From the NCBI GenBank assembly GCA_001785805.1, contig MFUU01000010.1, positions 1,936 through 50,580 of the forward strand: a stretch of 48,645 bases of DNA. The letters run 5' to 3'. This document shows, in pieces, positions 10,406-37,063 of the stretch (position 1 is the stretch's first letter; each line of letters begins with the position of its first letter). The notes under the pieces were generated by a model. It was not told where the DNA came from, ran no database searches, and saw only the letters and a list, made by a program, of their open reading frames with translations. Made by a program: the position numbers and the translations under genes. This DNA comes from Candidatus Nomurabacteria bacterium RIFCSPLOWO2_01_FULL_39_17. GTDB lineage: Bacteria > Patescibacteriota > Minisyncoccia > Phycocordibacterales > UBA9973.

Positions 10406-10466
10406 AAAGTTTTTTGTGTCCTCGGTTCCCCGGGTCCCTATCCCGGCCAAACCATTCAAAAACTTT
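10406..10466 (-). repeat. Nested-hairpin interspersed element, family 1, long-form copy E
   Basis: Minus-strand reading: AAAGTTTTT-GAATGGTTTGGCCGGGATAGGGACCCGGGGAACCGAGGACAC-AAAAACTTT. Homologous to copy D. Confidence 0.8.
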
Positions 10467-10500
10467 ATTTTGCTTCACTTTATATATTATATACTATTTG

Positions 10501-10509
10501 TGCTAAAAT
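10501..10509 (+). promoter_or_regulatory. Extended -10 box TGCTAAAAT, 7 nt upstream of the recJ ATG
   Basis: TGn plus TAAAAT. Spacer TTGCTCT lacks a Shine-Dalgarno. Confidence 0.4.
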
Positions 10510-10516
10510 TTGCTCT

Positions 10517-12172
10517 ATGCAGAAGTATGGCGAATTATTACAGTTATTGCTAGGAAAAAGGGGAATTACCGACGAAAATCAAGCTCAAGTTTTTCTCAAC
10601 CCAGATTATGCAAGAGATTTTCACGACCCATTTCTGATGCGCGATATGGAGAAAGCTTGTGTAAGACTATATGAGGCAATCGATGCTGGTGAAAAAATAG
10701 TAATTTATGCCGATTATGATTGCGATGGCATACCCGGAGCGCTAATTTTGCGGGATTTATTTAAAAAGGTAGACTATAAAAATTTTGAAGTCTATATTCC
10801 AAAAAGAAATTCTGAAGGCTACGGCCTTAACCTTTCGGCTATGAAACAATTTGCAGAAAATGGGGTGAAACTTATCATAACGGTAGACCTGGGCATTACG
10901 GCAGTGGCCGAAGTGACGCAAGCGGAAGTAAATGGTATTGATGTTATTATAATGGACCATCATTTATCAAGCGCTGTTTTACCCCGCGCTTATGCGATTT
11001 TAAATCCTAAAATAGATGATTATCCCGAGAAAATGTTATGCGGAGCCGGAGTTGTTTTTAAATTTATACAGGGTTTTATAAAAAAATATGGCGAATATTT
11101 TAAAATAAAAAATGGTGCTGAAAAATGGATGCTCGATATGGCAGGCCTTGCCACGCTCTCTGATATGGTTCCCCTCTTGGGAGAGAATAGAGCCATTGCC
11201 TATTTTGGTTTGAAAGTTTTGCGCAAATCTCCTCGCCCGGGTTTACAGAAACTTTTAGCCAAAATGAATATTGACCAGAAACATCTCACCGAAGACGATA
11301 TAGGCTTTATGGTGACCCCGAGATTAAACGCCGCTTCGCGCATGGACGACCCCATGCGCGCCTTTGAACTTCTTTCTACAGAAAACGAAAAAGAGGCAGA
11401 TTTGCTGGCTGACCATCTATCGAAGATAAATGATGAAAGAAAATTAATTGTTGCTTCTATTATGCGAGAAGTGGGAAGAAAATTTGAGACGCGAGAAGTA
11501 AAAGATGTGATAGTAATAGGCAATCCGTCATGGAAGGTGGGAGTTTTAGGGCTAGTGGCGGGTAAAATGTCGGATGAATACAAAAGACCAGTTTTTGTCT
11601 GGGGTAAAGACGAGAACGATTTATTGAAGGGTTCTTGTCGGAGCGACGGTTCGGTGTCCGTGGTTGAACTTATGCATGAAACAAAAGAATCCTTTTTAGA
11701 ATTTGGCGGTCACGAACTTGCGGGCGGATTTACAGTGCATAACGATAAAATTCATTTTCTAGAAGACGCTCTATCTCTATCTTATACAAAAATAAAACGC
11801 CCCTTGTCAAAAGAATTGAATGAACAAGCCGACATTGTTGATGATTTCAGCTTGATAAATATGAAGAATTGGCGCGAAATAGAAAAACTTGCCCCATTCG
11901 GACTTGGCAACCCAAAACCCATATTTCTTTTCTCGGGAGCAAAAGTAGAGAAGATCAAGAAATTCGGGAAAAATGGCTCAGGAGAGCACCTGGAAGTTAC
12001 CTTTTCTGATTCGAATAATAATAAAGCTAAAGCGATTTCTTTTTTTTCTAACCATGAATCTTTTGAAGTTCCTTTGTCAGAAGGTTTGAGGGTAAATCTT
12101 CTTGCTACTTTTGATTTGTCTCGTTTTCGCGGACGGGAAGAATTAAGACTGAGAATTGTTGACATATGTTAA
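10517..12172 (+). CDS. recJ: Single-stranded-DNA-specific exonuclease RecJ
   Basis: 551 aa. DHH-family motifs DYDCDG, DLG, MDHH and the DHHA1 motif GGHELAGGF. Confidence 0.88.
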   Translation: MQKYGELLQLLLGKRGITDENQAQVFLNPDYARDFHDPFLMRDMEKACVRLYEAIDAGEKIVIYADYDCDGIPGALILRDLFKKVDYKNFEVYIPKRNSEGYGLNLSAMKQFAENGVKLIITVDLGITAVAEVTQAEVNGIDVIIMDHHLSSAVLPRAYAILNPKIDDYPEKMLCGAGVVFKFIQGFIKKYGEYFKIKNGAEKWMLDMAGLATLSDMVPLLGENRAIAYFGLKVLRKSPRPGLQKLLAKMNIDQKHLTEDDIGFMVTPRLNAASRMDDPMRAFELLSTENEKEADLLADHLSKINDERKLIVASIMREVGRKFETREVKDVIVIGNPSWKVGVLGLVAGKMSDEYKRPVFVWGKDENDLLKGSCRSDGSVSVVELMHETKESFLEFGGHELAGGFTVHNDKIHFLEDALSLSYTKIKRPLSKELNEQADIVDDFSLINMKNWREIEKLAPFGLGNPKPIFLFSGAKVEKIKKFGKNGSGEHLEVTFSDSNNNKAKAISFFSNHESFEVPLSEGLRVNLLATFDLSRFRGREELRLRIVDIC

Positions 12173-12178
12173 TATAAT
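12173..12178 (+). promoter_or_regulatory. -10 box TATAAT, 6 nt upstream of the rnhA ATG
   Basis: Perfect hexamer in the 12-nt recJ-rnhA spacer. May be a chance match in AT-rich DNA. Confidence 0.25.
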
Positions 12179-12184
12179 ATAATT

Positions 12185-12670
12185 ATGAAAAGTAAAATTA
12201 TAATTTATACAGACGGTTCGGCAAGAGGTAATCCTGGAAAAGCTGGCTGGGCTGCGATTTTAGTTAATGGAAAGAAAATTTTAGAAATTGGAGGCAGAAG
12301 CGACCATGCGACCAACAACCAGATGGAACTTACTGCGCCAATAGAAGCGTTGAAGTATTTAAAGAAACACCTATCTCGCCGAGCCAAGGCGGATAAAAAA
12401 ACTTCACCCATGGAAATATTTTCTGATTCAAAATATGTGATTTTAGGAATTACCGAGTGGATTTTTAATTGGCAGAAAAATAATTGGCGTAATGCCAATA
12501 AAAAGTTGGTATTAAACCGCGAACTCTGGGAGAGACTTTATAAACTTGCGGAAGAATTAAAGCCCAAATGGGTTTATATTGAAGGCCACAATGGCGACAA
12601 GTGGAATGAACGGGCCGACGTCATTGCCACCAGTTTCGCTGACAATATACCTATAAAACTTAGAAAATAA
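12185..12670 (+). CDS. rnhA: Ribonuclease HI
   Basis: 161 aa. IYTDGSARGNPG, NNQMEL, SDSKYV and NERAD (DEDD catalytic pattern). Confidence 0.88.
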   Translation: MKSKIIIYTDGSARGNPGKAGWAAILVNGKKILEIGGRSDHATNNQMELTAPIEALKYLKKHLSRRAKADKKTSPMEIFSDSKYVILGITEWIFNWQKNNWRNANKKLVLNRELWERLYKLAEELKPKWVYIEGHNGDKWNERADVIATSFADNIPIKLRK

Positions 12671-12680
12671 AAAATTTTAA

Positions 12681-14162
12681 ATGCAGGATAAGGTTTTTTA
12701 TGCAATATGTCTAGGGTTTATATGCGGAGTGCTCTTGCGCTCTTTTGTTTTTATAAATATTTTCACAATAATATTTGTGAGTATTATTGGATTAGCGCTT
12801 ATTTTATTTTTCACCTTAATTTCTAAAAATAGGTGGGGGATTATCTTTTCCATTTTTGTGCTGATGTTTGCTTTCGGAATTTTGAGATTTCATCTCGCCG
12901 ACAAGCCCGCGCCTTACGTCCTTAAATCACAAACAGATCAAAAGATATCTTTGATTGGAAATATTGTAGATGAACCAAATATTGGCGAGAATAGCCAGAG
13001 ATTGACCGTAGAAATAGAAGTGGAGAAAAGTAAAGTAAAAATTTTACTGACTGTAAAAAATCAAGGTGAAGATTTTAAATATGGCGATAGGGTAGATTTT
13101 TCCGGGAAACTGGATAAAATAGAAAATTTTATCACCGACCAAGGTAAAGAATTCAATTATGTAAATTATTTGCGCAAAGACGGAATATTATATTCGATGT
13201 ATTATCCAAAAATTGAAATTATTTCTCGCGATGGTGGTAATTTTATAAAACGCGGACTTTTCTCTATTAAAGAAAAATTTCTAGAAAAAATAAATTTAGT
13301 AATCCCAAATCCCGAAAGTCTGCTTATGGGCGGGCTGATATTAGGCGAAAGGTCTTCTTTTACCAGAGACCTAAGACAGAGTTTTGTAGATACAGGCACT
13401 ATACATATTGTAGCCCTATCTGGTTATAATGTTACAATTGTCGCCGAGTGGATTATGAAAGTTTTTTCATTCTTACCGTATAGTTGGGGTTTTGGGATTG
13501 GAATATTTGGGATTTTTCTTTTTATAATTATGTCAGGCGGGTCCTCTACAGCTATTCGCGCGGGAGTGATGGCTTCTTTAGCGCTTATCGCCCGCGCGAC
13601 TGGAAGAAACTATGATGTTGCGCGAGCGCTTATTTTGGCCGGTGTTGCGATGATACTCTTGAACCCGCTTATTTTGGTTTATGACGTATCTTTTCAGCTT
13701 TCTTTTATTGCGACTGTGGCAGTGATATTTATTGCTCCGAGGATTGAAAGACATTTCTCATGGGTTACCGAGCGCTTCCAGTTGCGAGATATTATCACAG
13801 TTACTTGCGCGGTCTATGTCTTTGTCTTGCCCTTTATCCTGTATAAGATGGGAAACTTGTCGTTGGTTGCTTTGCCGGCGAATATTTTAATTTTACCGTT
13901 TATTCCATTTACCATGTTCCTTGGTTTTATGACTGGATTTTTGGGATCGGTTTTTTACATTTTAGCTATCCCTTTCGGCTATCTGTCATATTTTATTCTT
14001 CACTACGAATTGGGGGTAGTTAATTTTTTCGCCCATGTACCCTTTGCTTCGTTTACTATTCCCAACTTTCCGTTTCTCATCACACTTCTGATTTACGCCT
14101 ATTTCATTTATAGACTTTTTGGGAGAAATATAAAAAGTTTTTTTAGTACCAACAAAATATAG
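12681..14162 (+). CDS. comEC: ComEC/Rec2 DNA internalisation channel, N-terminal OB (DUF4131-like) plus competence membrane domain only
   Basis: 493 aa polytopic membrane protein. Soluble insert after the first TM segments, then the ComEC-like core with HIVALSGYNV. No beta-lactamase domain. Confidence 0.75.
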   Translation: MQDKVFYAICLGFICGVLLRSFVFINIFTIIFVSIIGLALILFFTLISKNRWGIIFSIFVLMFAFGILRFHLADKPAPYVLKSQTDQKISLIGNIVDEPNIGENSQRLTVEIEVEKSKVKILLTVKNQGEDFKYGDRVDFSGKLDKIENFITDQGKEFNYVNYLRKDGILYSMYYPKIEIISRDGGNFIKRGLFSIKEKFLEKINLVIPNPESLLMGGLILGERSSFTRDLRQSFVDTGTIHIVALSGYNVTIVAEWIMKVFSFLPYSWGFGIGIFGIFLFIIMSGGSSTAIRAGVMASLALIARATGRNYDVARALILAGVAMILLNPLILVYDVSFQLSFIATVAVIFIAPRIERHFSWVTERFQLRDIITVTCAVYVFVLPFILYKMGNLSLVALPANILILPFIPFTMFLGFMTGFLGSVFYILAIPFGYLSYFILHYELGVVNFFAHVPFASFTIPNFPFLITLLIYAYFIYRLFGRNIKSFFSTNKI

Positions 14163-14240
14163 AATTTTGAGGCACGGATATTTTTCTGCTAAAAAATTCC
14201 TCGTGTTCGCTCCGTCGAGCTCGCAAGCCCCCAAAATCCT
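14161..14240 (+). repeat. Nested-hairpin interspersed element, family 2, copy 1 (between convergent comEC and SOD genes)
   Basis: GGCACGGATATTTTTCTGCTAAAAAATTCCTCGTGTTCGCTCCGTCGAGCTCGCAAGCCCCC with outer arms AGAATTTTGAGG / CCCCAAAATCCT. Homologous to 34675-34769 and, inverted, to 39482-39583. Confidence 0.7.
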
Positions 14241-14245
14241 ATATT

Positions 14246-14854
14246 TTATTTTCCCTCAGCTTTGATAAAGTTTTCTTCTATTACTTTCCAATTTAGATTT
14301 TCAAAAAATGCTTCTACATATTTCTTCTTTTCCGATGTCGGGTAGTCGTATACAAAAGCATGCTCCCACATATCAAGAGCCAAAACTAAAGTACAGTCTT
14401 GCAGCTGTCCCAAATGCTGTTCATCCACCCAAGTAGACAATAGCCTTTTTTCTTTTCTGTCGTAATAAAGCATAGCCCAGCCAATACCGCGAGTGAGGGC
14501 AATAGCCTTAAAACGGCTCATCCATAAGTCAAAAGACCCCCATTCTTCTATAACCATTTCTCTTAATTTACTATCATCTGCAAGCGTTTTTGCTCCTCCA
14601 GATAAAGATTGGAAGTATACCTCATGGTTTCGCATGCCGTTATATTCAAAACTAAATCGACGATGAAGCTCACCCACAACATAAGGGGCAAAAGCGTCTT
14701 CTTTTGTATACCCTTCATACTCAAGTATTTTTTCCAAAATAGAATTGGCGTTTTTTACATATCCAGCATAGAGCTTCAAGTGCTCTTCAATGTTTTTCTT
14801 TGATATGCCCTTTAATTCTCCCATATTAAACTTTATTTCTTCAAATTTTTTCAT
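14246..14854 (-). CDS. Fe/Mn superoxide dismutase
   Basis: 202 aa. HLKLYAGYV, NHEVYF and DMWEHAFVYDY motifs of the Fe/Mn SOD family. Confidence 0.88.
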   Translation of the reverse strand: MKKFEEIKFNMGELKGISKKNIEEHLKLYAGYVKNANSILEKILEYEGYTKEDAFAPYVVGELHRRFSFEYNGMRNHEVYFQSLSGGAKTLADDSKLREMVIEEWGSFDLWMSRFKAIALTRGIGWAMLYYDRKEKRLLSTWVDEQHLGQLQDCTLVLALDMWEHAFVYDYPTSEKKKYVEAFFENLNWKVIEENFIKAEGK

Positions 14855-14925
14855 CCCAGTACTAAAATTTTAACTAATAATGTTTATCTTTATACCCCGT
14901 AATCAAAAATTTAGTACGGGATATG

Positions 14926-14934
14926 TGTTAATAT
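14926..14934 (+). promoter_or_regulatory. Extended -10 box TGTTAATAT, 6 nt upstream of ATG 14941
   Basis: TGn plus TAATAT. No Shine-Dalgarno. Confidence 0.35.
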
Positions 14935-14940
14935 TATAAC

Positions 14941-15810: not shown

Positions 15811-15827
15811 TTATGATAGAGTTAAGA

Positions 15828-15891
15828 CAGAATTTACTTTTTCGAACGGTCTGGGGATTTTTTCCGAGGACCTGAGAAAAAGAAAATTCTG
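15828..15891 (+). repeat. Nested-hairpin interspersed element, family 1, short-form copy A
   Basis: CAGAATTTACTTTTTC-GAACGGTCTGGGGATTTTTTCCGAGGACCTGA-GAAAAAGAAAATTCTG. Lies in the spacer before glyA. Confidence 0.85.
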
Positions 15892-15902
15892 AATTAACTT
15901 TT

Positions 15903-17144: not shown

Positions 17145-17152
17145 TAGAAACT

Positions 17153-17881
17153 ATGTTAAAAAGTAAAAATATTTTAATAACTGGTTCATCGTCTGGTATC
17201 GGGGCGGCAACTGCACGGTTGGCGAAAAAATACGGGGCAAATCCAATTTTACACGGCAAAACCGAAAGCGACGAGTTAAAAGCATTAGCTAAAGAATTGA
17301 ACTGTGAATATATTTTCTGCGATGTTGCTGATAAGGTAGCTGTTGAGTCTGAAGTTAATAAGATTTTAATAAAGTTCAAAAGAATTGATATATTGGTAAA
17401 TTCTGCAGGAATTTCTAAAGGACAAAACTTTTTAGAAGGAACTGATGATCTCTGGCTAGAAATATTTAAAGTAAATGTTTTAGGGACGAAACATTTTTGC
17501 CAGGAAATTATTCCCCACATGCAAAAGAATAAATACGGAAGAGTAGTAAATGTAGCTTCAATTAGAGGTTATGCGAACACTACTGGTAATTCTGCTTACG
17601 GAGCTTCTAAAGCTGCAATATTGACGATGACTGCTTCTTTAGCTAAAGAATTTGCACCAAAAATTGCAGTAAATGCTGTTGCTCCTGGTTTTACAGATAC
17701 AAGGATGGCTCTTGATCGTACGGAAAAGACTAAACAACAAGTAAAAGAAGCTTTACTGGGCAGAGCGGCATTGCCAGAAGAAATTGCCGAGGTGATTTTA
17801 TTTTTAGCTAGTGACAAAGCTAGTTTTATCACAGGTCAAACGATTATAGTGGATGGAGGTTATTCAATTTCAGGGAAATAA
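17153..17881 (+). CDS. Short-chain dehydrogenase/reductase (FabG-like)
   Basis: 242 aa. TGSSSGIGAATA cofactor motif, NSAG and the YGASKAA catalytic motif. Confidence 0.85.
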   Translation: MLKSKNILITGSSSGIGAATARLAKKYGANPILHGKTESDELKALAKELNCEYIFCDVADKVAVESEVNKILIKFKRIDILVNSAGISKGQNFLEGTDDLWLEIFKVNVLGTKHFCQEIIPHMQKNKYGRVVNVASIRGYANTTGNSAYGASKAAILTMTASLAKEFAPKIAVNAVAPGFTDTRMALDRTEKTKQQVKEALLGRAALPEEIAEVILFLASDKASFITGQTIIVDGGYSISGK

Positions 17882-19554: not shown

Positions 19555-21300
19555 ATGGAGGAAGAAATAAAAAAATTAATTAAAGACGCCCTGGGGAACC
19601 TCGCGATAGAGGTTGGTAATTTCACTATTGAGCATCCAGAAGATTTAAAGAATGGGGATTATTCCACGAATGTCGCCCTGGTCATAGCTAAAAGTGTTGA
19701 GAGAAATCCGCAAGAACTGGCCGAAAAAATAGTTGCCGAAATAATTAGACTAAACATAGATAAAAATATTGAAAAAGTAGAAGTTGCCGGCGCGGGATTT
19801 ATTAATTTTTATTTGTCCCGAAAGTTTTTCAGTGGTAGTGTTGAGGAAATCCTGAATATTAAAGATTTCGGTACAAATAAAATCTTTGCTAGCAAGAAAA
19901 TAATGGTTGAATACACTGACCCCAATCCTTTCAAGCCCTTTCATATCGGCCACCTGATGACGAATGCGATTGGGGAATCAATCGCGAGGATTTTGGAATA
20001 TTCTGACGCCGATGTTTCTCGGGCGAATTATCAAGGCGATGTGGGGCTACATGTGGCGAAAGCTTTTTATAGTATGCGAAAGAGAGGAATGCCGAAAGAT
20101 ATGGATGCTCCGGTATCGGTTTTAGCCCAATATATAGGCGAATCTTATGCCAAGGGCAATGAGGCTTATGAAAATGATATAAAAGCCAAAAAAGAAATTG
20201 AAGTTTTGAATAAAAAGATTTACGACAAAAATGATGAAGAAATAAATAAAGTTTACAACTGGGGTTTTAAAGTTACGATGGAAGCTTTTGAAGATTTGTA
20301 CAGAATACTCGGGACAAAATTTGATTTTTATTTTTTGGAGAGCGAAGTCTCTTTGTTCGGAGAACAAATAGTAAAAGATAATATCGGTCGGGTTTTTGAA
20401 AAATCTGACGGGGCAGTTGTTTTCAAAGCAGAGAAACACAACCCTAAACTTCACACCAGAGTTTTCATAACCTCTGAAGGTCTTCCTACTTATGAGGCCA
20501 AAGAGCTTGGGCTTACTGAAGAAAAATTTAAAGTTAAACCCGATATGGATCTTTCACTCGTTGTTACCGCCAACGAACAGGCAGACTATATGAAAGTGGT
20601 TGATAAAGCTCTTTCCTTGATTCATCCCGAATATGAAAACAAAATGCTCCATATCACGCACGGGATGATGCGCCTCCTCGCCCGTAGCCGGGCTACGGCC
20701 GAGGAGCTTACTTCTATAAAAATGAGCTCGCGGAAGGGTAATGTGATTACTGGCGAAAAGCTTATCCGCGACACGATTGCCTTGATAGTCGAGAAAATGA
20801 AAGATAGGAGTTGGAACCAGGAGGAGAAAAATAAGGTTGCCGAAAATGTGGGCGTAGCGGCGATAAAATATTCTATTCTTCGCTCCAAGGCGGGGAACGA
20901 TATTGTCTATAATGTTGAAGAGTCAATTTCGGTGGAGGGGGACTCGGGTCCATACTTGCAATATTCTTTCGCCCGAGCAAATTCAGTCATAGAAAAAGCG
21001 CAGAAGGAAAATATTTTGCCGGACTTTGAAAAAGTTCCCGATGAAGTGTCGGAAGTGGAAAAATTATTATATAGATTTCCGGAAGTTGTATCTCGTTCCG
21101 CATCTTTATACGAACCGCACCATATTGCGACTTACCTCATAGAACTAGCTCGTGCTTTTAATAACTTTTATGGGCATACTTTGATTGTAGATAAAAAGGA
21201 CATTACTTCTTCTTATAAAATAGCTTTAACTTATGCATTTTCTTTTGTAATGAAAACAGGCCTGCATCTCCTGGGCATCGAAGCCCCAAAGCGGATGTAA
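19555..21300 (+). CDS. argS: Arginine--tRNA ligase
   Basis: 581 aa. NPFKPFHIGHL (HIGH), KMSSRKG (KMSKS-like), C-terminal anticodon-binding DALR-type region ending in M. Confidence 0.9.
   Translation: MEEEIKKLIKDALGNLAIEVGNFTIEHPEDLKNGDYSTNVALVIAKSVERNPQELAEKIVAEIIRLNIDKNIEKVEVAGAGFINFYLSRKFFSGSVEEILNIKDFGTNKIFASKKIMVEYTDPNPFKPFHIGHLMTNAIGESIARILEYSDADVSRANYQGDVGLHVAKAFYSMRKRGMPKDMDAPVSVLAQYIGESYAKGNEAYENDIKAKKEIEVLNKKIYDKNDEEINKVYNWGFKVTMEAFEDLYRILGTKFDFYFLESEVSLFGEQIVKDNIGRVFEKSDGAVVFKAEKHNPKLHTRVFITSEGLPTYEAKELGLTEEKFKVKPDMDLSLVVTANEQADYMKVVDKALSLIHPEYENKMLHITHGMMRLLARSRATAEELTSIKMSSRKGNVITGEKLIRDTIALIVEKMKDRSWNQEEKNKVAENVGVAAIKYSILRSKAGNDIVYNVEESISVEGDSGPYLQYSFARANSVIEKAQKENILPDFEKVPDEVSEVEKLLYRFPEVVSRSASLYEPHHIATYLIELARAFNNFYGHTLIVDKKDITSSYKIALTYAFSFVMKTGLHLLGIEAPKRM
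20674..20706. repeat. 33-nt GC-rich imperfect palindrome in frame inside argS
   Basis: CTCCTCGCCCGTAGCCGGGCTACGGCCGAGGAG: 15/16 arm positions are complementary and 25/33 are G or C, in an AT-rich gene. Encodes LLARSRATAEE just before the KMSSRKG motif. Confidence 0.7.
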
Positions 21301-21314
21301 AAATAAAGATTTTA

Positions 21315-21323
21315 TGTTAAAAT
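21315..21323 (+). promoter_or_regulatory. Extended -10 box TGTTAAAAT, 8 nt upstream of ATG 21332 (ileS)
   Basis: TGn plus TAAAAT. It overlaps the alternative upstream ATG at 21314. Confidence 0.35.
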
Positions 21324-21331
21324 CAGTCATA

Positions 21332-24300
21332 ATGACTGAAAAAGAAGAAAATACTAAATCCGATATGGTGCTTCGGGAGGAGCGAGTTTTGGAATTCTGG
21401 CAAAAAAATAAAATTTTTGATAAATCTTTAAAACAAACTGAGGGAGGTAAAGAATTTATTTTTTACGAAGGTCCGCCAACTGCCAACGGTAAACCGGGCA
21501 TTCACCACTTGGAAGCGCGGGCTTTTAAGGATGCAATTCCGAGGTATAAGACAATGCAGGGTTATCATGTCCGCCGAAAGGGCGGATGGGACACGCATGG
21601 ACTCCCCGTTGAACTGCAAGTAGAGAAAAAGTTGGGGTTAAATTCAAAAAAAGCGATTGAGGAATATGGTATTGCCAGGTTTAACCAAAAATGCCAAGAA
21701 AGCGTCTGGGAATATTTGAATATGTGGGAAAAATTTACCGAGCGCATCGGTTTCTGGCTTGATCAGGAGAATCCATATGTGACTTATCATAACAATTTTA
21801 TTGAATCTGTCTGGAATGTAGTAAAAAAAGTTGATAAGCAGGGGCTTCTCTATAAAGATTATAAAGTTGTGCCATGGTGCCCGAGGTGCGGAACAGTGCT
21901 TTCTTCGCATGAACTTGCACTAGGATATGAGGATGTAAAAGATTTGTCGATATATGCGAAATTCAAAATTCGCTCCGTCGGTGAAAAATTTTCTCAGGTC
22001 CTCGGAAAAAATCCCCAGACCGTTCGAAAATCTTCCCCCGACTCCGCTTTACCATTGTACTTTCTTGCATGGACCACTACACCGTGGACTCTGCCTGGCA
22101 ATGTCGCTCTGGCAGTGGGAGAGAAAATTATTTATGTAAAAGTGAAATTGAATAATGAAATATTTATTCTGGCGAAAGAACGAATTTCTATATTGCCAGA
22201 ACCTTATGAAATTCTGGAAGAAATACATGGACAGGATTTGATTGGTTTGGAATACGAACCGCTTTTCCCATATCTTGCCGAGATTATTCCCGAGAACGAA
22301 AAATCAAAGTTAGAAAAAGCATACAAGGTTTACGGGGCAGACTTCGTGACTACTATTGATGGTACAGGCATAGTGCACACGGCTGTGATGTATGGGCAGG
22401 ATGACTTTGAACTTGGCACCAAAGTTGGCTTGCCGAAGCATCACCTCGTTAATTCCGAAGGTAAATTTATCAAAGGGACGGGACTCCTGGAAGGTCGGTT
22501 TGTAAAAGAAAAAGATAACAACAATAAACCGACACTTGATGTAGACATCATTAAATATCTGACCGATAAAAATTTATTCTTCAAAAAAGAAAATTATGAG
22601 CACTCATATCCGCACTGCTGGCGCTGTAAAACAGCGCTTATCTACTATGCGCGAGATTCTTGGTATTTTAAAATGTCCGACCAAAAGATAAAAGAAAAAT
22701 TAATTGCCGAGAATAAAAAAATAAACTGGGAGCCTTCGCACATCGGGGAAGGGCGTTTCGGCGAATGGCTGAGGGAAGTAAAAGATTGGGCAATCTCCCG
22801 CGAGCGGTACTGGGGCACGCCATTGCCGGTCTGGGAGTGCAGTAAGTGTAACAAGAAACATGTAATTGGAAGCTTGGAAGAATTAAAAAAGAAAACAAAA
22901 AAGTCCGGCAACAAGTATTTCGTAATGCGCCACGGCGAAGCGGGTAATAATATTAAAAATGGCATTCATCATAGAGATTTGGAATATAGCGCCAAATTAA
23001 CAGAAAAAGGGAAAAAACAAGTATTAGAGAGTTTAAGGAATTTTAAAGAGAGAGTAGATATCATTATTTCTTCTACATTTGAAAGAGCAAAGGAAACCAC
23101 TGAAATAGTTTGTGGACAAATTAATTTTCCGTTAGGAAAAGTTATTTATAACCAACAAATTAAAGAACAAGAAACTAGTTCGTTTTTTGACGGCAAGGAT
23201 AAAGCAGTTTTTGATGAATATTATGATGGAGGTTATTTACTGGATAATCCAAATGAAATTTTACCAGATAGTGAAAGTTTTGCTCAGGTAATTAAAAGAA
23301 TTGGGCAATTTATTTATGATTTAGAAACGAACTATTCTAATAAAAATATTTTAATTATTGGTCATGGGAATGCGACTAATGCTTTGAGTTTTATAGTAAA
23401 AGGATTATCATTAAATAATTTATCAAGTAAAAATAATCCATTTATTTCTCTTAAAAATGCCGAAATCAGGGGATTTGATTTTATCCCACTTCCGCATAAT
23501 GAAAACTTTGAACTTGATTTACACCGGCCCTATATTGATGAAATTAATCTTGTCTGCGAATGCGGAAGCAAGCTGACGCGCACGAAAGAAGTAATGGATG
23601 TTTGGCTTGATTCTGGCACGATGCCGTTCGCGCAGGACCATTATCCATTTGAGAATAAAGATTGGGTAGAAGGAAAAGGTTATCCGGCAGATTATATTTC
23701 CGAAGCGATTGATCAGACTCGCGGGTGGTTTTATACGTTACACGCCGTTGGCGTCCTGATGGGTCGCGGGAGAGCATTTAAGAATGTTATTTGTCTCGGA
23801 CATTTACTTGATGCCACTGGCAAGAAAATGTCGAAATCTCTGGGAAATATAGTTAATCCGTGGGTGATGATAGAAAAATACGGAGCAGATACACTTCGTT
23901 TATGGATGTATTCTGTCAATCAGCCCGGAGAGTCTAAGAACTTCGACGAAAAGACAGTTGCTCTGCTTTCCCAGCAAGTTTTTGGACTGCTTTATAACGT
24001 GCTCGCATTTTATGAACTTTACCGCGATAGGGTGCTGGAAAAGAACAACCGACCCAAAATATCTAAAAATGTTTTAGATATTTGGATTCTTGCCAAACTT
24101 GATGAGTTGATAGGACTTTCAACTAAAAATTTAGACAATTATAAATTGCTTGAACCAGTAAGAGGCATGAAAGACTTTATCGGCGACCTTTCAACTTGGT
24201 ACTTGCGCCGTTCGCGAGAGAGAATAAAAGAAGGGGACGTGGAAGCAAAACAAACTTTATACTTTGTATTAAAAACTCTTACGAAATTATTAGCCCCATT

Positions 24301-31139: not shown

Positions 31140-32562
31140 TTTCTTTATTACGACAACAATTCCTTATGTGAATGCCAATCCTCACATTGGTTTTGCTCTT
31201 GAACTTGTGCAATCGGATGCCATTGCTCGATATAAACGTCTTCTTGGACAGGATGTCTTTTTTAGCACGGGGACGGATGAATATGGCCAGAAAATTTTTG
31301 CAGCAAGTGTTAAAGAAGGCAAGAATATTCAAGATTATGTAGACCACTATGCGCAAAAATTTCTAGATTTAAAAAATACGCTTAATCTTTCATGTGATAA
31401 TTTTATCAGAACCACTAGTCCCGAGCATGTGCTTGCGGCGCAAGAATTCTGGCGCCTGTGTGATAAAAAAGGAGATATTTATAAAAAAATATACACAGGA
31501 CTTTACTGCATTGGCTGCGAAAAATTTATTACCGGGAAAGATATTGCAGATGATAAATGTATGCTGCACCCCAATCAAAAACTTGAAACTGTTGAAGAAG
31601 AGAATTATTTTTTCCGACTAGAAAATTACAAAAAACAACTTCTAGAATATTTAAATGGCGAGAAAGTTATTTTCCCGGAGTGGCGCCGGAAGGAAGCGAT
31701 TGATTTTGTAGAGAATGCAATGGAAGACTTTTCAATTTCCCGCAAGAAAGAACGTTTGTCCTGGGGAATACCGATCCCGGGGGACGATACACAAGTTATG
31801 TATGTTTGGTTTGGCGCTTTTGTGAATTATATTTCAACATTGGGCTGGCCGGGGAAAAAAGATAATTTTGATAAATTTTGGTTAAGTGGAGAGAAAGTTC
31901 AAACTGCCGGTAAAGATATGGTTAAATTCCAGTCGGTAATGTGGCAGGGGATGCTAATGTCTGCCGGGATGCCCACGACCGATACCATTGTCTACCATGG
32001 CTTTATTACAGGAGAGGGTGGCATAAAGATGTCTAAATCTCTGGGCAATGTGATAAATCCGAATGAAATTGTGAAAGAATACGGCACCGACGCGCTTCGA
32101 TATTTTCTTCTTCGCGAGATTTCTACCTTTGAAGATAGTCCTTTTACTATGGAGCGCTTCAAAGATGCTTACAATGCAGGACTTGCGAATGGTTTAGGGA
32201 ATTTAACTTCTAGAATTATAAAAATGGCTGAAGATAATCTATCTCAACCCGTGGATATATTTTCACTTCGCCCCGATGCAAAATTTATAAAGCATATGGA
32301 AAATTTCGACACTCAAAAATCTATTGAGCTCGTCTGGCTATGGATTGGCGAACTTGATTCAATTATTCAATCAGAAGAACCTTTCAAATTAGTAAAAACC
32401 AATCCCAAAAAAGCTAAAGAAATTATAACAAAACTAGTTCTTGGATTAGATAACATAGCTGAACATTTAAAATATTTTCTTCCAGAGACATCAGAAAAAA
32501 TACAAGAATCAATTACAGAAAACAAGAAACCCGAGAAGCCATTATTTTTACGTAAAGATTAA
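31129..32562 (+). CDS. metG: Methionine--tRNA ligase
   Basis: [15 protein letters not shown] (HIGH), CIGCEKF knuckle, KMSKSLGN. Start at ATG 31129 overlaps the upstream gene by 11 nt. Confidence 0.9.
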
Positions 32563-32563
32563 T

Positions 32564-33403
32564 ATGCCCAAGTATATAGACATACACTCCCACGTTAATT
32601 TTAAGGCCTTTGATGCAGATAGAGATGAAGTAATAAAACGGGCGCTTGCAGAAGATACTTGGGTAATAAATGTCGGCACACAAGTAGATACTTCAAGGAA
32701 AGCTGTTGAGATGGCGCATCAATACGAGAAGGGTGTGTACGCAATCATTGGACTTCACCCTATACATACTGGTGCATCTTTTCACGATGAGAAAGAATTG
32801 GGCGAGAGTGGCAAGGAGTTTACTTCTCGCGGAGAAGTTTTTGACGAAGAAGTTTATAGGAAACTTTTAGCAGACCCGAAGACGGTAGCGATAGGAGAAT
32901 GCGGGCTAGACTATTATCATCTTGATAAAGAATCTATCGTGAAGCAGAAAGAAGCTTTTTTCGCGCAGATAGAATTGGCGAATGAATTGGGTAAGCCGCT
33001 GATGCTACATATTCGCAATAATCCGAAAGAAAAGAAAAACAATGCGTATCTTGATTCATTAAAACTCTTAAAAAAACATTCTAAGGTTAAGGGAGATGTT
33101 CATTTTTTTGCCGGAACTTTGGAAGAAGCTAGAATGTTCGTAGACTTTGGTTTTACCCTTTCTTTTACAGGAGTTATAACTTTTACGAATGATTATGATG
33201 AAATTATAAGGAATACACCGCTTAATATGATTATGTCCGAAACGGACGCCCCATATGTCTCTCCGGCGCCGTATCGGGGCAAGCGCAATGAGCCCTCGTA
33301 TGTAAGGGAAGTGGTTAAAAAAATAGCCCAAGTGAAGGATTTGTCGGAGAACGAAGTCGCAGAAACAATAATTGCAAATGCCAAACGAGTGTTCGGGATT
33401 TAG
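32564..33403 (+). CDS. TatD family metal-dependent hydrolase/DNase
   Basis: 279 aa. IDIHSHVNF, GECGLDY, HIRN, HFF and SETDAPY motifs. Confidence 0.85.
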   Translation: MPKYIDIHSHVNFKAFDADRDEVIKRALAEDTWVINVGTQVDTSRKAVEMAHQYEKGVYAIIGLHPIHTGASFHDEKELGESGKEFTSRGEVFDEEVYRKLLADPKTVAIGECGLDYYHLDKESIVKQKEAFFAQIELANELGKPLMLHIRNNPKEKKNNAYLDSLKLLKKHSKVKGDVHFFAGTLEEARMFVDFGFTLSFTGVITFTNDYDEIIRNTPLNMIMSETDAPYVSPAPYRGKRNEPSYVREVVKKIAQVKDLSENEVAETIIANAKRVFGI

Positions 33404-33425
33404 GGTTGCGTTTTTAAGGGGTTTT

Positions 33426-33434
33426 TGCTAGTAT
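33426..33434 (+). promoter_or_regulatory. Extended -10 box TGCTAGTAT, 7 nt upstream of ATG 33442
   Basis: The same 9-mer is found 7 nt upstream of the efp ATG on the other strand. Confidence 0.35.
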
Positions 33435-33441
33435 GAAATCC

Positions 33442-33936
33442 ATGTCAGATAAAGATTTAGACTTAGAAGACAACGCAGATTCTCGAATTTACGAGGTTGG
33501 GTATCTTTTAGTGCCCACGATAGAAGAGGGTGGAATTCCGGCTGTCTATGGTAATTTAAAAGAACTTGTTCTAAGCTTAAGCGGACAAGTTATTTCAGAT
33601 GAAATTCCAAGAATGCGAGAGCTTGCTTATACTCTAGGTAAAGACGTGCAAAATGTACGCAATAAATTTGATACTGCCTACTTTGGCTGGACTAAATTTG
33701 AAATGGAACCGGAAAAAGTTCTAGAACTAAAAAAGAAATTAGATCTTGACTCAAACTTTTTGAGATTTTTAATAATAAAGACAATAAAAGAAAATACTGT
33801 CGCCGCTAGAAGATTTATTCGTCGGGATACAATTCATCGCAAAACTCCAGGCGTGGGTGGAACGGATATCGGAGTTCCAGTAGAAATAAATAAAGAAGAG
33901 ATTGATAAAGAAATAGAAGCTATGGTGGCGATATAA
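33442..33936 (+). CDS. rpsF: 30S ribosomal protein S6 with a C-terminal extension
   Basis: YEVGYLLVP core and conserved rpsF-ssb-rpsR order. An alternative in-frame ATG at 33433 overlaps the putative -10 box. Confidence 0.8.
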   Translation: MSDKDLDLEDNADSRIYEVGYLLVPTIEEGGIPAVYGNLKELVLSLSGQVISDEIPRMRELAYTLGKDVQNVRNKFDTAYFGWTKFEMEPEKVLELKKKLDLDSNFLRFLIIKTIKENTVAARRFIRRDTIHRKTPGVGGTDIGVPVEINKEEIDKEIEAMVAI

Positions 33937-33965
33937 TTATTAGTAAAAAGTTGTAAAGTAAAACA

Positions 33966-34415
33966 ATGTATTTAAACAAAGCAATTGTAATAGGAAATCT
34001 TACCCGCGACCCGGAGCTTCGTTCGCTTCCATCCGGTGTAAAAGTTTGTTCATTTTCTCTTGCCACGAATCGTGTCTGGAAAGATAAGAACGGCGCGCGT
34101 CAAGAATCCGCAGATTATCATAATATTGTGGTTTTCGGGCGTCAGGCAGAAACAGTAGCGCAATATATGAAAAAAGGCAGTTCGATGCTGATAGAAGGTA
34201 GAATGCAGACCAGAAGTTGGGAAGATAAAACCAGCGGAGAGAAGAAGTATCGCACGGAGATAGTTGCCGATCGCACGCAGTTCGGCCCCAAGGGAGGTGC
34301 CAGTAGCGGGGGACAAACCACAAATGGCAAAGCTCAACCAGCCACCGGATCCGAAGATGTTGACACGATAGAATACCCAGAGGAAGATATTAACCCGGAA
34401 GACATACCGTTCTAG
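33966..34415 (+). CDS. ssb: Single-stranded DNA-binding protein
   Basis: 149 aa. OB-fold N-terminus MYLNKAIVIGNLTRDPELR, Gly-rich linker, acidic tail ending in EDIPF. Confidence 0.92.
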   Translation: MYLNKAIVIGNLTRDPELRSLPSGVKVCSFSLATNRVWKDKNGARQESADYHNIVVFGRQAETVAQYMKKGSSMLIEGRMQTRSWEDKTSGEKKYRTEIVADRTQFGPKGGASSGGQTTNGKAQPATGSEDVDTIEYPEEDINPEDIPF

Positions 34416-34464
34416 TTATAAAGTAGAAAGTTCGTAAAGTTATAAAGAAAATACAAAATAACAA

Positions 34465-34665
34465 ATGAAACAAGATTACTTTTCGACCAACAATATAAAA
34501 TATATAGACTATAAAGATATTGAAATTTTAAAGAAGTTTCTGAATCCAAACGGTAAAATCATAAGCCACAAGCGTACTGGTGTGACGTCCAGAAACCAGC
34601 GCAAACTCGCTACAGCTATCAAAAACGCTCGTTTTTTGGGCCTTTTGCCCTTTGTCGCTAAATAG
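34465..34665 (+). CDS. rpsR: 30S ribosomal protein S18
   Basis: 66 aa. YIDYKD...LKKFL...GKIISHKRTGV...QRKLATAIKNARFLGLLPF. Confidence 0.9.
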   Translation: MKQDYFSTNNIKYIDYKDIEILKKFLNPNGKIISHKRTGVTSRNQRKLATAIKNARFLGLLPFVAK

Positions 34666-34674
34666 AAATTCATA

Positions 34675-34769
34675 AAAAATCTCTAAAAAAGAGCACGAAT
34701 ATTTTTCTGCTGAAAAATTTCTCAAGACTCGCGCCGTCGCGCTCCATAGTCTCTTTTTGTGAGATTTTT
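34675..34769 (+). repeat. Nested-hairpin interspersed element, family 2, copy 2 (between convergent rpsR and efp)
   Basis: Outer arms AAAAATCTCTAAAAAAGAG / CTCTTTTTGTGAGATTTTT enclose GCACGAATATTTTTCTGCTGAAAAATTTCTCAAGACTCGCGCCGTCGCGCTCC. Confidence 0.75.
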
Positions 34770-34775
34770 TATTTC

Positions 34776-35354
34776 CTATACTCTTTCCACGTATTCTCCA
34801 GTTTCAGTGTTTACGCGGATAGTATCTCCTTCGTTTATAAACATCGGAACATTTAGAGTTGCTCCGTTTTCGAGGGTGATTATTTTCATCCCTCCCTTTG
34901 AAGTGTCTCCGCGGACGGCCGGCGGAGCTTCTTTTACCTTAAATTCCATTTTAATCGGCAGGGTCACTTTTATAATCTTCTCTTCGCCGTCATTATTCCA
35001 AACCAAAGCAATAGCGTTGCTGTTCTGTTTTAAGAATTTCATCGTATCTCCGATTAAGGATTCTGTAAGTTTAAATCTGTTGCTTTTATCATTCGGATTG
35101 CAGAACCAATATTCTCCCCTGTTTGCATATAAAAACGCAACATCTCTTTTTTCAATCTCCGCTTCATACGCAGAATCAGCCACGTGGAACGTAGCGGGGA
35201 AAACCTTACCTGAAATCAGACTTCTTAATTTCACCTGATTTTGCGGTTTGCGCTGTTGGGTGCGGGCGACATGACTCTCCACTACTTCGCAGGGCTCGTC
35301 ATCATAAATAATTATTTTCTTTTCACGAATTTCGCTGTATTGAAGTTGAGACAT
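34776..35354 (-). CDS. efp: Translation elongation factor P, with a divergent modification loop
   Basis: 192 aa from ATG 35354 (the ORF-track TTG at 35360 is less likely). C-terminal GDTIRVNTETGEYVERV is typical of EF-P. Confidence 0.88.
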   Translation of the reverse strand: MSQLQYSEIREKKIIIYDDEPCEVVESHVARTQQRKPQNQVKLRSLISGKVFPATFHVADSAYEAEIEKRDVAFLYANRGEYWFCNPNDKSNRFKLTESLIGDTMKFLKQNSNAIALVWNNDGEEKIIKVTLPIKMEFKVKEAPPAVRGDTSKGGMKIITLENGATLNVPMFINEGDTIRVNTETGEYVERV

Positions 35355-35361
35355 AGGCAAT

Positions 35362-35370
35362 ATACTAGCA
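35362..35370 (-). promoter_or_regulatory. Extended -10 box TGCTAGTAT (minus strand), 7 nt upstream of the efp ATG
   Basis: Minus-strand reading is TGCTAGTAT-ATTGCCT-ATG. No Shine-Dalgarno. Confidence 0.4.
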
Positions 35371-35404
35371 GAACAATTTTAAAAATCAAATTTTAATTTG
35401 AGTG

Positions 35405-35482
35405 GAAGTTTGGTGTTTTATGAATGGTCTGGCTGGGATAGGGACCCAGAGATCCGAGGACCTGAATAAAATACCAAACTTC
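35405..35482 (+). repeat. Family 1 nested-hairpin element, long-form copy D
   Basis: GAAGTTTGGTGTTTTAT-GAATGGTCTGGCTGGGATAGGGACCCAGAGATCCGAGGACCTGA-ATAAAATACCAAACTTC. Lies between the recA stop and the efp start. Confidence 0.85.
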
Positions 35483-35522
35483 TGCGAGATAAATATTCGC
35501 GCTCTAAAATCTTATAATTTCT

Positions 35523-36566
35523 TTACGACTCCTCTTCAGCGAACTTTTTTCTAATTTCCTTCAGGATTTGGTCTCCGATTTTTTTATTTTCTTTCAAGAA
35601 TGTTCGGGTAGCATCATAACCCACACCCAACTTAACTTTCTCTTTCGCTTCACCTCTCGGCGCATAAAAGTATGAATTTCCGCTTTTTTCTACGATCTTG
35701 AACTTTTCTCCCAAGGCCATGATTTCTCCTTCTTTAGAGATTCCCTCGTTATAAATAATATCAAATTCTGTTTGCTTAAAAGGTGCAGCCACTTTATTTT
35801 TCACGACTTTTACCCGCGTACGGCTTCCCACTACTTCCTCTCCTTTTTTGATTTGGGCGATTTTTCTAATATCAAGGCGGACCGAAGTATAGAATTTCAG
35901 CGCCTTACCCCCGGGAGTAGTTTCTGGATTACCAAACATCACTCCGATTTGCATCCTGATTTGATTGATGAAGATTACAACGGTTTTAGATCTAGCAACT
36001 ATGGCGGTTAATTTGCGGAGCGCTTGCGACATCAGACGGGCTTGTTTTCCCACATGATATGCTCCCATGTCGCCTTCTATCTCGTCTTTCGGCGTCAACG
36101 CTGCCACTGAATCTACCACTACTACATCAATTTTTCCTGTTCGTACCAAGGACTCCACTATTTCAAGCGCCTGTTCACCATTGTCCGGCTGGGAAATCAA
36201 CAGATTATTTATATTTACCCCAAGTTTTTTTGTGTATTCAGGGTCCATTGCGTGCTCGGCATCTATATAGGCGCAAACCCCGCCTTTTTTCTGCGCTTCG
36301 GCAACGATATGTAAAGATAGTGTGGTTTTTCCGGAAGACTCCGGTCCAAATATTTCAATAATCCTACCCCGCGGAATTCCCCCAACACCGAGTGCCATAT
36401 CCAGCCCAATGGAACCGGTGGGAATTACATTGATATCCACTTTTGGCGAATCGCCAAACTTCATAATAGCGCCCTCGCCGAATTTTGTCTGGATTGCCTT
36501 GACGGTATCGTCCAGCATTGATATTCCTACTCCTTTATCTTCTTTTTTCTCTTTTTTCTTCAACAT
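35523..36566 (-). CDS. recA: Recombinase RecA
   Basis: 347 aa. Walker [26 protein letters not shown] and [19 protein letters not shown]. Confidence 0.95.
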
Positions 36567-36575
36567 AATAATTTC

Positions 36576-36641
36576 GCGGGAAATACTTTTTATAAGGTCC
36601 TCGGAAAAAATCCCCAGACCATTCTAAAAAGTATTTCCCGC
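36576..36641 (-). repeat. Family 1 nested-hairpin element, short-form copy C
   Basis: Perfect 17-bp arms GCGGGAAATACTTTTTA / TAAAAAGTATTTCCCGC around TAAGGTCCTCGGAAAAAATCCCCAGACCATTC. Lies 9 nt upstream of the recA ATG and contains the stop codon of the upstream ORF. Confidence 0.88.
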
Positions 36642-36986
36642 TTCATATATTAATTTATAATTTTTTTCATTTATATTTCCAAATTTATCTTTGGCTGTTA
36701 TATTAACTATATTATAGCCCGAAAGCAAAACAATTGTTTCATTGAAATTTCCATCTTTGTCTATTGAAATTTCTCTGCCATTTAGGCTCAAGTTTATCGC
36801 ATTTTTAGCATTCCCGTGTACCTCCATGACGCTATTGGTAACTCTTGCTCCATCTGTTAGGTTTACATTTCTTATTTTTACTCCGAAAATCAAATTTTTT
36901 GACACGAAAAAAGCGTAGATTATAATAAAAATAAAAAAGACAGACAACACGCCGATTTTTAATATTTTTTTTACATCTTGATTCAT
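36624..36986 (-). CDS. Small membrane-anchored protein with an Ig-like/beta-sandwich ectodomain, function unknown
   Basis: 120 aa. N-terminal TM helix ILKIGVLSVFFIFIIIYAFFV. The last five codons and the stop lie inside repeat copy C. Confidence 0.5.
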   Translation of the reverse strand: MNQDVKKILKIGVLSVFFIFIIIYAFFVSKNLIFGVKIRNVNLTDGARVTNSVMEVHGNAKNAINLSLNGREISIDKDGNFNETIVLLSGYNIVNITAKDKFGNINEKNYKLIYEAGNTF

Positions 36987-36997
36987 TTTCTTTTGTA

Positions 36998-37063
36998 GCA
37001 GGAATTACTTTTACGAATGGTCTGGGGATTTTTTCCGAGGATCTGAGAAAAAGAAATTCCTGC
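36998..37063 (+). repeat. Family 1 nested-hairpin element, short-form copy B
   Basis: GCAGGAATTACTTTTAC-GAATGGTCTGGGGATTTTTTCCGAGGATCTGA-GAAAAAGAAATTCCTGC. Lies between the ftsK stop and the next gene start. Confidence 0.88.

Follow-up and report, generated by a model that had tools for sequence, protein, structure and literature searches.

A small interspersed hairpin repeat, probably non-autonomous, between and inside housekeeping genes of Nomurabacteria-type Patescibacteria

In a stretch of 48,645 nt from Candidatus Nomurabacteria bacterium RIFCSPLOWO2_01_FULL_39_17 (assembly GCA_001785805.1, contig MFUU01000010.1, positions 1,936 to 50,580; the whole stretch is called the window), one kind of nested hairpin occurs six times, in both orientations, and the question raised by this locus is what sort of entity such a repeat represents. 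An earlier reading of the letters (the original prediction) had taken the six copies, A to F, for a DNA-level element resembling miniature inverted-repeat transposable elements (MITE), repetitive extragenic palindromes (REP) or Rickettsia palindromic elements (RPE), or for a structure read on both strands. The element, here called family 1, is probably a small non-autonomous hairpin repeat of the RPE/REP-like kind, mobile or converted, specific to the Paceibacteria/Nomurabacteria-type lineage of Patescibacteria and acting as single-stranded DNA (ssDNA).

For identification of copies, a covariance model built from 116 copies was run over the whole window with filters off. Its matches were exactly the six copies (55–85 bits, E 1e-9 to 1e-15; Table 1), at the places and on the strands originally described; the next-best match reached only 21 bits, and no tail of decayed family-1 copies was seen below the six. 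Aligned in one orientation, the six copies share the core GAAYGGTYTGG-[9 or 21 nt]-CCGAGGAYCTGA inside complementary arms. GAAYGGTYTGG has six exact matches in the window and nine with at most one mismatch (2.3 expected from shuffled sequence), and CCGAGGAYCTGA has five matches (0.19 expected). The division into a short form (A, B, C, F) and a long form (D, E) was as described, and the identical stretch of A and F, first given as a 40-mer, measured 42 nt. The arms had been reported to differ between copies yet to stay complementary over 9–17 bp; the complementarity was confirmed and the length was not, the arms being longer (typically 16–20 bp, with ~16–25 bp as the span given for the family). 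Nor are the arms wholly unrelated between copies, since those of A, B and C have a common GCRGGAAWTACTTTT consensus and B and C are 83% identical over their full length.

Each copy forms a single long imperfect hairpin of ~65–110 nt. The arms, P1, are free in sequence and 85% paired, and those of distant loci differ with complementarity kept; the three innermost pairs are invariant U-A (UUU../..AAA). Above P1 follow G-A pairs in tandem, then one A-U pair and a pyrimidine bulge (GAAY facing UGA). The next part is a helix that does not vary, GGUCUGG/CC-GA-GGACC, in which a U-G pair is conserved and the two nucleotides GA are bulged. The near-invariant, asymmetric apical module, GAAYGGUCUGG-[variable hairpin P3]-CCGAGGACCUGA, holds a replaceable part, P3, which is followed by a purine-rich linker (RGAW). 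P3 takes the form of a 9-nt loop (GGAUUUUUU or UGA......) or of a hairpin, of which several types occur (CYGGG-NNAGGGA-CCCRG; CCGGGG-loop-CCCCGG; CC-GA-GC..GC-GA-GG hairpins of at most 34 nt; UUGAGC..GCGAC), and across genomes the range extends from the 9-nt loop to a 38-nt hairpin. In about one-third of copies the hairpin base consists of a short outer helix and a symmetric GNA/GNA internal loop. Only the ~40-nt apex and the UUU/AAA pairs are conserved across the family; arm columns have no majority base. In copy E the core is shortened on its 3′ side, where CCUGA is missing.

Among the 116 copies, 88.6% of paired cells were occupied by pairs (68% in shuffles), and changes on both sides were found for 15 of the 18 P1 pairs and all five P3 pairs; pair 31:59, for example, is C-G in 53 copies and U-A in 31. 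The covariation of the inner hairpin that had been noticed between D and E (CUGGG/CCCAG, CCGGG/CCCGG) recurs throughout this set. Compensatory variants of the core were also found in loci outside the window used for comparison, which are given L-numbers: GGUC/GACC is changed to GUUC/GAAC in L082, and GAAY..UGA to GAGCU..CGA in L016 and L056, the latter change showing that the third loop base pairs with the U. Folding energies of the six window copies were −19 to −39 kcal/mol, with z-scores against shuffles of −4.0 to −9.5 in five copies and a weaker value, −2.1, in copy E. Inverted repeats in DNA can show covariation even if they have no function as RNA. Named RNA motifs were compared by eye and rejected: a likeness to the hammerhead (CUGA..GAAA) fails in UUA variants and the core is only a two-way junction; for a K-turn the bulge lies on the opposite strand from the one required and is not long enough; hairpin and twister ribozymes, C/D boxes and Y RNA were likewise dismissed.

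The strand that folds was then apparent from the pairing itself. For each of the six copies the GAAYGG strand is the one that folds more stably, and tandem G-A motifs exist on this strand only. In the P1 arms of the 116 copies, G-T combinations outnumber A-C combinations on the element strand by 102 to 14 (binomial p = 1e-17). Split by location, the counts are 56:10 where a copy is antisense to an open reading frame (ORF), 11:1 where it is sense and 35:3 outside ORFs. Because this excess stays with the element strand irrespective of gene direction, the folded form is one specific single strand, independent of the mRNA, and the suggested structure read on both strands does not hold, as the G-U pairs and tandem G-A pairs mark one folding strand. 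The companion claim, that of a DNA-level element and not a strand-specific riboregulator, agrees with the finding that about three-quarters of the copies are antisense, many of them inside ORFs. This bias is ~3:1, with 50 antisense and 14 sense copies within ORFs and 22 and 9 between co-directional genes; stop codons account for part of it only, the sense core closing one frame with UGA.

That whole hairpins, arms included, are inserted into DNA was seen with copy F, which lies not between genes but within the isoleucyl-tRNA synthetase (IleRS) ORF. It is antisense to ileS and is read through. The closest IleRS homologues carry Nomurabacteria or Paceibacteria labels, and among the 120 nearest, ~100 have, just ahead of the WTTTPWT motif, a loop of 12 residues (K-I-K-G-Q-E-N-T-Y-I-L-A), at a place where loop length varies naturally. 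In the window protein this loop has 35 residues, an excess of 23 residues or 69 nt, which correspond to both arms, the core and a single copy of the 5-nt direct repeat by which copy F is flanked (CGGAG when read on the element strand); deletion of these 69 nt gives a 12-residue loop. As the empty site contains neither arm, the arms belong to the inserted DNA, and a mobile core entering pre-existing host hairpins was rejected on this ground and because neighbouring copies have common arms. The AlphaFold2 model shows the inserted residues as a low-confidence excursion (pLDDT 54–62) between two confident strands. The IleRS gene of L123 (76% protein identity) carries an orthologous copy with the same arms, from which the window copy differs by two compensatory double changes, with wobble positions conserved; one of the two has the short apex and the other a long P3. 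The core is invariant between these orthologous copies though the flanking codons are saturated at synonymous sites.

Other features of the same synthetase genes were recorded separately. The window IleRS contains an inserted His_Phos_1 (histidine-phosphatase) domain (residues 536–705); in L125 (1501–4215) the corresponding gene is split by the gene calls into three successive ORFs, His_Phos_1 being in the middle one, and many IleRS homologues are ‘partial’ proteins of ~400–520 aa. The leucyl-tRNA synthetase (LeuRS) of L017 (1990–5037) has an inserted NUDIX domain. A perfect palindrome lies within the ileS coding region, and argS contains a hairpin with a core faintly like that of family 1, which may be a decayed intragenic copy and is without a covariance-model match (Table 1).

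Insertion into proteins is not peculiar to IleRS. By an ORF heuristic, 74 of ~120 copies lie in long ORFs, and 64 (~55% of the total) were kept by a stricter rule demanding an ORF of at least 150 aa with at least 40 aa open on either side. Among these 64, antisense copies are read in frame 1 (31 copies), frame 0 (16) and frame 2 (3), and sense copies in frame 1 (12) and frame 0 (2). The reading frame stays open in every intragenic copy. Pfam domains span the insert in all ten proteins checked (MnmA, class-V aminotransferase, UvrA, UvrB, PheT, GatA-type amidase, TrmD, UvrD, LeuRS and SMC) and in the window IleRS, and the same positions of the same genes carry copies in several genera. The peptides encoded by the inserts are unrelated (FSQVLG.., FSSGPR.., FLNGLAG.., FEWSGR..). 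From the five frame and orientation combinations and the unrelated peptides it follows that family 1 is a nucleic-acid element tolerating translation. A conserved peptide motif was rejected for the same use of five combinations, and an intron or bypass element because all intragenic frames are open and the intergenic copies, which occupy short spacers, stand between different genes; family 1 is thus a nucleic-acid entity, neither peptide motif nor intron. No copy was found between convergent genes among the ~120 classified.

Occurrence outside the window was examined by scanning a degenerate core pattern over one genome per GTDB species, which gave at least 119 stretches. About 105 of the 119 stretches listed lie in Patescibacteria assemblies, and >115 copies in ~80 Patescibacteria assemblies (Nomurabacteria/Paceibacteria) were counted among the matches listed, so that many further copies exist in other genomes. 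Some 12 listed matches in other phyla are attributed to chance because the arms and the CCUGA..AAA continuation are absent; all real matches among those listed fall in Patescibacteria. Some 10 extra copies, with 1–3 core substitutions, some of them compensatory, were recovered from the scanned loci with the covariance model. Density is uneven: six copies in 48.6 kb of the window and 11 matches in 365 kb of recA loci of relatives. The whole window gave no match in Rfam 15 at gathering thresholds, and positions 35300–37200 at E ≤ 10 gave chance-level matches only (E ≥ 0.08); such repeats in Patescibacteria are not described in the searchable literature, and the element was accordingly rightly left unnamed. 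Carriage by phage was rejected, as the core motif had no match in IMG/VR viral contigs.

For comparison of orthologous sites, 80 metagenomic loci encoding RecA relatives (72–95% identical) were used. Those long enough mostly keep the gene order ftsK, a small Glucodextran_B-like gene and recA, usually followed by efp. At RecA identities of at least 89% (89–93%), the ftsK|small and small|recA junctions measure −4 to 17 nt in at least eight loci, and junctions of 57–131 nt filled with family 1 were found in the window, L153, L128, L130, L135/L137 and L140; empty junctions were counted in at least eight relatives and filled ones in seven. In L131 the junction retains a single arm only. Empty sites, which the original prediction had proposed to look for, therefore exist both in the IleRS gene and at orthologous gene junctions of close relatives, and family-1 copies are gained or lost between close relatives. 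No very recent gain or loss of family 1 was seen between the window and L120 (99.96% identical) or L121 (98.8%), where B, C and D are identical; a comparison for copies A, E and F based on the SHMT gene gave one contig only, from the same scaffold as L120.

Orientation changes at a given site as well. Copy C is inverted relative to same-site copies in relatives, and in the class-V aminotransferase, MnmA and UvrA genes the same position carries elements of differing orientation between genomes. Inversion in place is directly visible for a second hairpin family (family 2; Table 1), one copy of which (34672–34772) is inverted in place in L121, a strain 98.8% identical; for copy C it is the probable course of events. 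The normalised edit distance between P3 sequences is 0.36 within and 0.49 between genomes, a difference reached in none of 2000 permutations, and rare P3 types recur across loci of one genome (DALYEI, JBAXFB, JBPOHQ, DATKGV). Paralogous copies in the ftsK|small and small|recA junctions are 83–93% identical within a genome, arms included. Between the window and L128, by contrast, identity of the orthologous ftsK|small copies is only 62%, the whole P3 and the loop variant being different, so that copies at separate sites of one genome resemble each other more than same-site copies of two genomes. P3 can thus be swapped in place, and copies within a genome evolve in concert.

Whole hairpins with their arms are copied to new places, mostly tight gene junctions and surface loops of proteins; in proteins only frame-preserving copies survive, and they are translated as 20–30 extra residues. 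On the reading favoured above, the relevant form would be the fold of one strand as ssDNA, presumably recognised by a structure-specific enzyme, by analogy with HUH Y1 transposases acting on REP or IS200/IS605 hairpins or, alternatively, with integron integrase acting on folded attC; complementarity of the arms may be kept partly through templated correction of one arm by the other.

Several points weigh against this reading. No transposase linked to family 1 was found, and the sole HUH gene of the window (Table 1) is flanked by a different palindrome. No clear target-site duplication was found: the GNA/GNA flanks of about one-third of copies could equally be a structural 3 × 3 internal loop. 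In 16 of 116 copies (~4 expected) the trinucleotide that ends the 5′ flank also opens the 3′ flank, mostly as GAA/GAA, for which a structural internal loop is possible too. The core is too conserved for decaying selfish DNA and needs ongoing conversion or selection, because it is invariant in orthologues with saturated synonymous sites and no decayed copies are present in the window. The folded strand is mostly the transcription template strand, presumably also the leading-strand template, unlike the known IS200/IS605 arrangement. With regard to the data themselves, most foreign copies come from a pattern demanding an intact core and carry that ascertainment bias, in-ORF calls beyond the verified cases depend on the ORF heuristic, and the script used to walk along P1 took G-T more readily than A-C and may somewhat inflate the ratio of the two.

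It is conceivable, though doubtful, that the apex is itself an active single-stranded nucleic-acid device, more than the best-kept portion of a decaying repeat, and that some machinery recognises this structured ssDNA (or RNA) motif and copies it from hairpin to hairpin within a genome, in a homing-like or conversion-like manner, with the locus-specific arms left in place. Replacement of this kind would give an identical core with genome-specific P3 in orthologues, an absence of decayed copies, and paralogues more alike than orthologues; if true, bacterial repeats would have a novel way of propagating, at work within essential genes of minimal genomes.

The high conservation could also be explained by a domesticated DNA signal, the apex being a cruciform or ssDNA site for binding or loading of a chromosomal protein, with selection retaining it at many positions, mobility secondary, and candidate roles in nucleoid organisation, replication, repair, topoisomerase action or DNA uptake. 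REP/BIME elements do bind gyrase, IHF and Pol I, and an invariant core across genera and between orthologues amid saturated synonymous sites, the lack of decayed copies in the window, persistence at the same gene positions in several genera and a strand-specific fold independent of transcription direction would all be expected of such a site. This explanation is nevertheless rather unlikely: orthologous sites are empty in many close relatives with compensation not seen, apical modules vary widely between genomes, density is very uneven (6 per 48.6 kb, 11 per 365 kb), and no candidate binding protein was found.

Less likely again is a functional structured RNA whose conserved core is under selection as RNA, whether it acts in cis on processing or stability, as a protein-binding motif or as a small ribozyme. 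The conserved asymmetric core, tandem G-A pairs, U-G pair, GA bulge and variable apical stem, all typical of structured RNAs, invite it, as do the folding z-scores (−4 to −9.5 in five of six copies, −2.1 in E), the covarying arms and inner hairpin and the large excess of G-U over A-C on one strand. However, with ~75% of copies antisense the well-folding strand would lie outside the mRNA, orientation differs at orthologous sites and presence varies in close relatives, more than half of the copies are in ORFs and read through, and the G-U asymmetry tracks the element and not the transcript; no Rfam match was obtained even at E ≤ 10, and covariation is expected of inverted repeats in DNA anyway.

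Intrinsic, possibly bidirectional, terminators or stabilisers of mRNA ends, with the intragenic copies accidental, would suit the many intergenic copies with 5′ A-runs and 3′ T-runs round a 24–28-bp stem (L014, L037, L050, L093, L118) and the short spacers that copies fill, but such a role is very improbable for the family and can apply at most to some intergenic copies, as none lies between convergent genes, more than half are in ORFs where termination would be lethal, others stand between closely linked operon genes whose ends overlap by 4 nt in relatives, and a 40-nt invariant asymmetric apex would be superfluous.

If the element is an RPE/REP-like repeat, its relation to the described families has to be defined. 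The closest analogue is the RPE, on account of the in-frame insertions, and no named family has all its defining features matched by family 1. RPEs are ~100–150 bp, alignable over the full length within each family, and encode a conserved peptide in one reading frame; they are palindromic, a large share of their copies lies in frame in unrelated housekeeping genes, copies occupy orthologous positions common to related species, and their transposase is not known (PMC10969869). Family 1 resembles them as a set of interspersed hairpin-forming palindromes in a reduced genome that add a peptide in a tolerated loop, occur at orthologous positions among relatives and have no transposase linked to them. 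It differs, in this comparison by description, in its length (65–110 nt), five frame and orientation combinations, unrelated peptides, arms without a majority base, an invariant asymmetric apex with fast-evolving arms and a swappable hairpin, and its occurrence in an unrelated phylum.

REPs are short (~20–40 nt), extragenic imperfect palindromes with a 5′ GT(A/G)G head, and a gene for a REP-associated tyrosine transposase (RAYT) is flanked by two inverted copies of the same repeat (PMC2817692). Dispersed, strand-specific imperfect hairpins, paired changes and genome-specific variants are common to both, and the 5′ foot of family 1, G[A/G/U]AG in about one-third of copies and mirrored by 3′ GNA, recalls GT(A/G)G. 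In REPs, however, the stem is conserved and the position extragenic, whereas in family 1 the apex is conserved, the stem variable and 55% of copies intragenic, and RAYT-like genes are flanked by other, simple palindromes and not by family 1. MITEs (Correia, ERIC, Chunjie, QMITE) are small, non-autonomous and AT-rich, sometimes intragenic in frame, with long and short forms (PMC10969869). Stable stem-loops, presence or absence between relatives, intragenic fusions and long and short forms with internal insertions are found in family 1 too, but MITEs have conserved terminal inverted repeats, target-site duplications and related insertion sequences, whereas the ends of family 1 are its least conserved part, its arms being common to neighbouring or orthologous copies only; no insertion sequence with ends matching family 1 was present among the window ORFs or sequence.

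In attC sites a folded single strand is recognised, which has a free complementary stem, extrahelical bases marking the strand and a variable apical structure. Family 1 has a free complementary stem, strand-marking unpaired bases and a variable apex as well, a likeness that is functional only: the R-box motifs GTTRRRY / RYYYAAC are absent from the base of its hairpin, its copies are dispersed and often intragenic and do not form cassette arrays, and no integrase gene (intI) was found among the window ORFs.

To our knowledge, in-frame palindromic insertions in housekeeping proteins have so far been essentially a Rickettsia curiosity; insertion of the RPE type is now seen independently in Patescibacteria, whose genomes are among the smallest and most streamlined, in genes that include aminoacyl-tRNA synthetases, tRNA-modification enzymes and DNA-repair proteins. 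Family 1 accounts for a class of odd insertions in Patescibacteria proteins, and annotators and structure predictors should be warned of repeat-derived peptide segments. The element could serve as a lineage marker for Nomurabacteria/Paceibacteria bins, and its invariant apex, swappable hairpins, in-place inversion and homogenisation offer a tractable system for the spread of hairpin repeats without an obvious transposase.

Table 1. Positions in the window, strands and particulars of the family-1 copies and of other features
Feature	Position	Strand	Particulars
Copy E	10396-10475	-	Long form; P3 CCGGG-AUAGGGA-CCCGG; 55.5 bits
Copy A	15826-15893	+	Short form; 9-nt apical loop GGAUUUUUU; 62.1 bits
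Copy F	21976-22043	-	Short form; inside IleRS ORF; 59.2 bits
Copy D	35404-35483	+	Long form; P3 CUGGG-AUAGGGA-CCCAG; 85 bits
Copy C	36575-36642	-	Short form; 65.8 bits
Copy B	36997-37064	+	Short form; 57.4 bits
ileS, host gene of copy F	21314-24913	+	Isoleucyl-tRNA synthetase; single ORF of 1199 aa
Palindrome in ileS	24379-24415		Perfect, 18 bp, 1-nt centre (GCCAAAAATGTCAAAGAG / CTCTTTGACATTTTTGGC)
argS	19555-21300		
Hairpin in argS	19807-19882		22-nt arms, 86% complementary; 32-nt core TCAGTGGTAGTGTTGAGGAAATCCTGAATATT
HIT-family gene	9995-10459	-	
recJ	10517-12172	+	
RAYT-like/IS200-like HUH tyrosine transposase gene	45280-45951	+	223 aa; HFH and YIHLNP motifs
Palindrome flanking HUH gene	45229-45251		23 nt, CTAGCAAGGACNGTCCTTGCTAG
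Palindrome flanking HUH gene	45956-45978		23 nt, inverted relative to the other copy
Family-2 hairpin	14151-14250		
Family-2 hairpin	34672-34772		
Family-2 hairpin	39480-39584		
Third hairpin kind	39400-39468		
TSP_1/CARDB protein gene	58-2481	+	807 aa
PilB-like gene	2529-4277		
PilC-like gene	4354-5574		

The window carries ordinary Patescibacteria housekeeping genes (type IV pilus genes, tpi, pgk, a HIT-family gene, recJ, rnhA, comEC, sod, glyA, tmk, dut, argS, ileS, recO, metS, efp, recA and ftsK), and over ~7.8 kb compared (31523–39371) it is 99.96% identical to the groundwater metagenome scaffold represented by L120. Copy E sits between the divergent HIT-family gene and recJ and overlaps the annotated start of the former. 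Copy A lies in a 92-nt spacer between a gene for a metallo-beta-lactamase fold and glyA (SHMT), sense to both. Copy D, of which L128 has an orthologue, lies ~40 nt past the recA stop codon and is antisense to efp and recA. Copy C separates the small Glucodextran_B-like gene from recA, in sense to both, and the small gene takes its final codons and its stop from the 5′ arm of this copy (120 aa in the window, called as 114–121 aa in relatives). Copy B is in the ftsK|small-gene spacer, antisense to both, with orthologues in L128, L130, L135/L137 and L153 and an empty site in at least eight relatives.

The HUH protein matched Pfam Y1_Tnp with 28.6 bits, and its best NCBIfam match was REP-associated tyrosine transposase with 35.7 bits, below the cut-off of 80. 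A RAYT-like gene is present in the window and in three of 119 related loci (L050, L066, L069), the homologues being flanked by genome-specific simple palindromes. As the window gene is flanked by its own palindrome, it is unsupported as mobiliser of family 1 and is a lead, not evidence.

Family 2 consists of nested hairpins with variable arms and T-run/A-run inner ends; its three window copies have a common core, ..CACGRATATTTTTCTGCTRAAAAATTYCT.. and ..CGCNCCGTCGNGCTC.., and further copies lie 3′ of recA in the relatives L133 and L136. In L120 (864–1196) unrelated sequence stands in place of window positions 39372–39736, upstream of ftsK. The window segment contains a family-2 copy and a hairpin of a third kind, and the next 700 nt are only ~90% identical to L120. 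The region upstream of ftsK thus looks like a local hot spot of hairpin-element turnover. At least two more hairpin families were found at the same operon junctions of relatives (L127, L132, L135 and L142, in small|recA or ftsK|small spacers; L130, L142, L144), the one ~125 nt long (GAGCGAATATATTTTA..CCCTGTTAAATGATTTTTGC..) and the other reading AAATCAAAAATTTTTGAGCCTTCGCCCTCGGAGTCATAAG.., and tight gene junctions seem to be landing sites common to several hairpin families. At the opposite end of the window, the gene for a protein with TSP_1 and CARDB domains adjoins the PilB-like and PilC-like type IV pilus genes; the thrombospondin type 1 (TSP_1) domain is unusual in bacteria.

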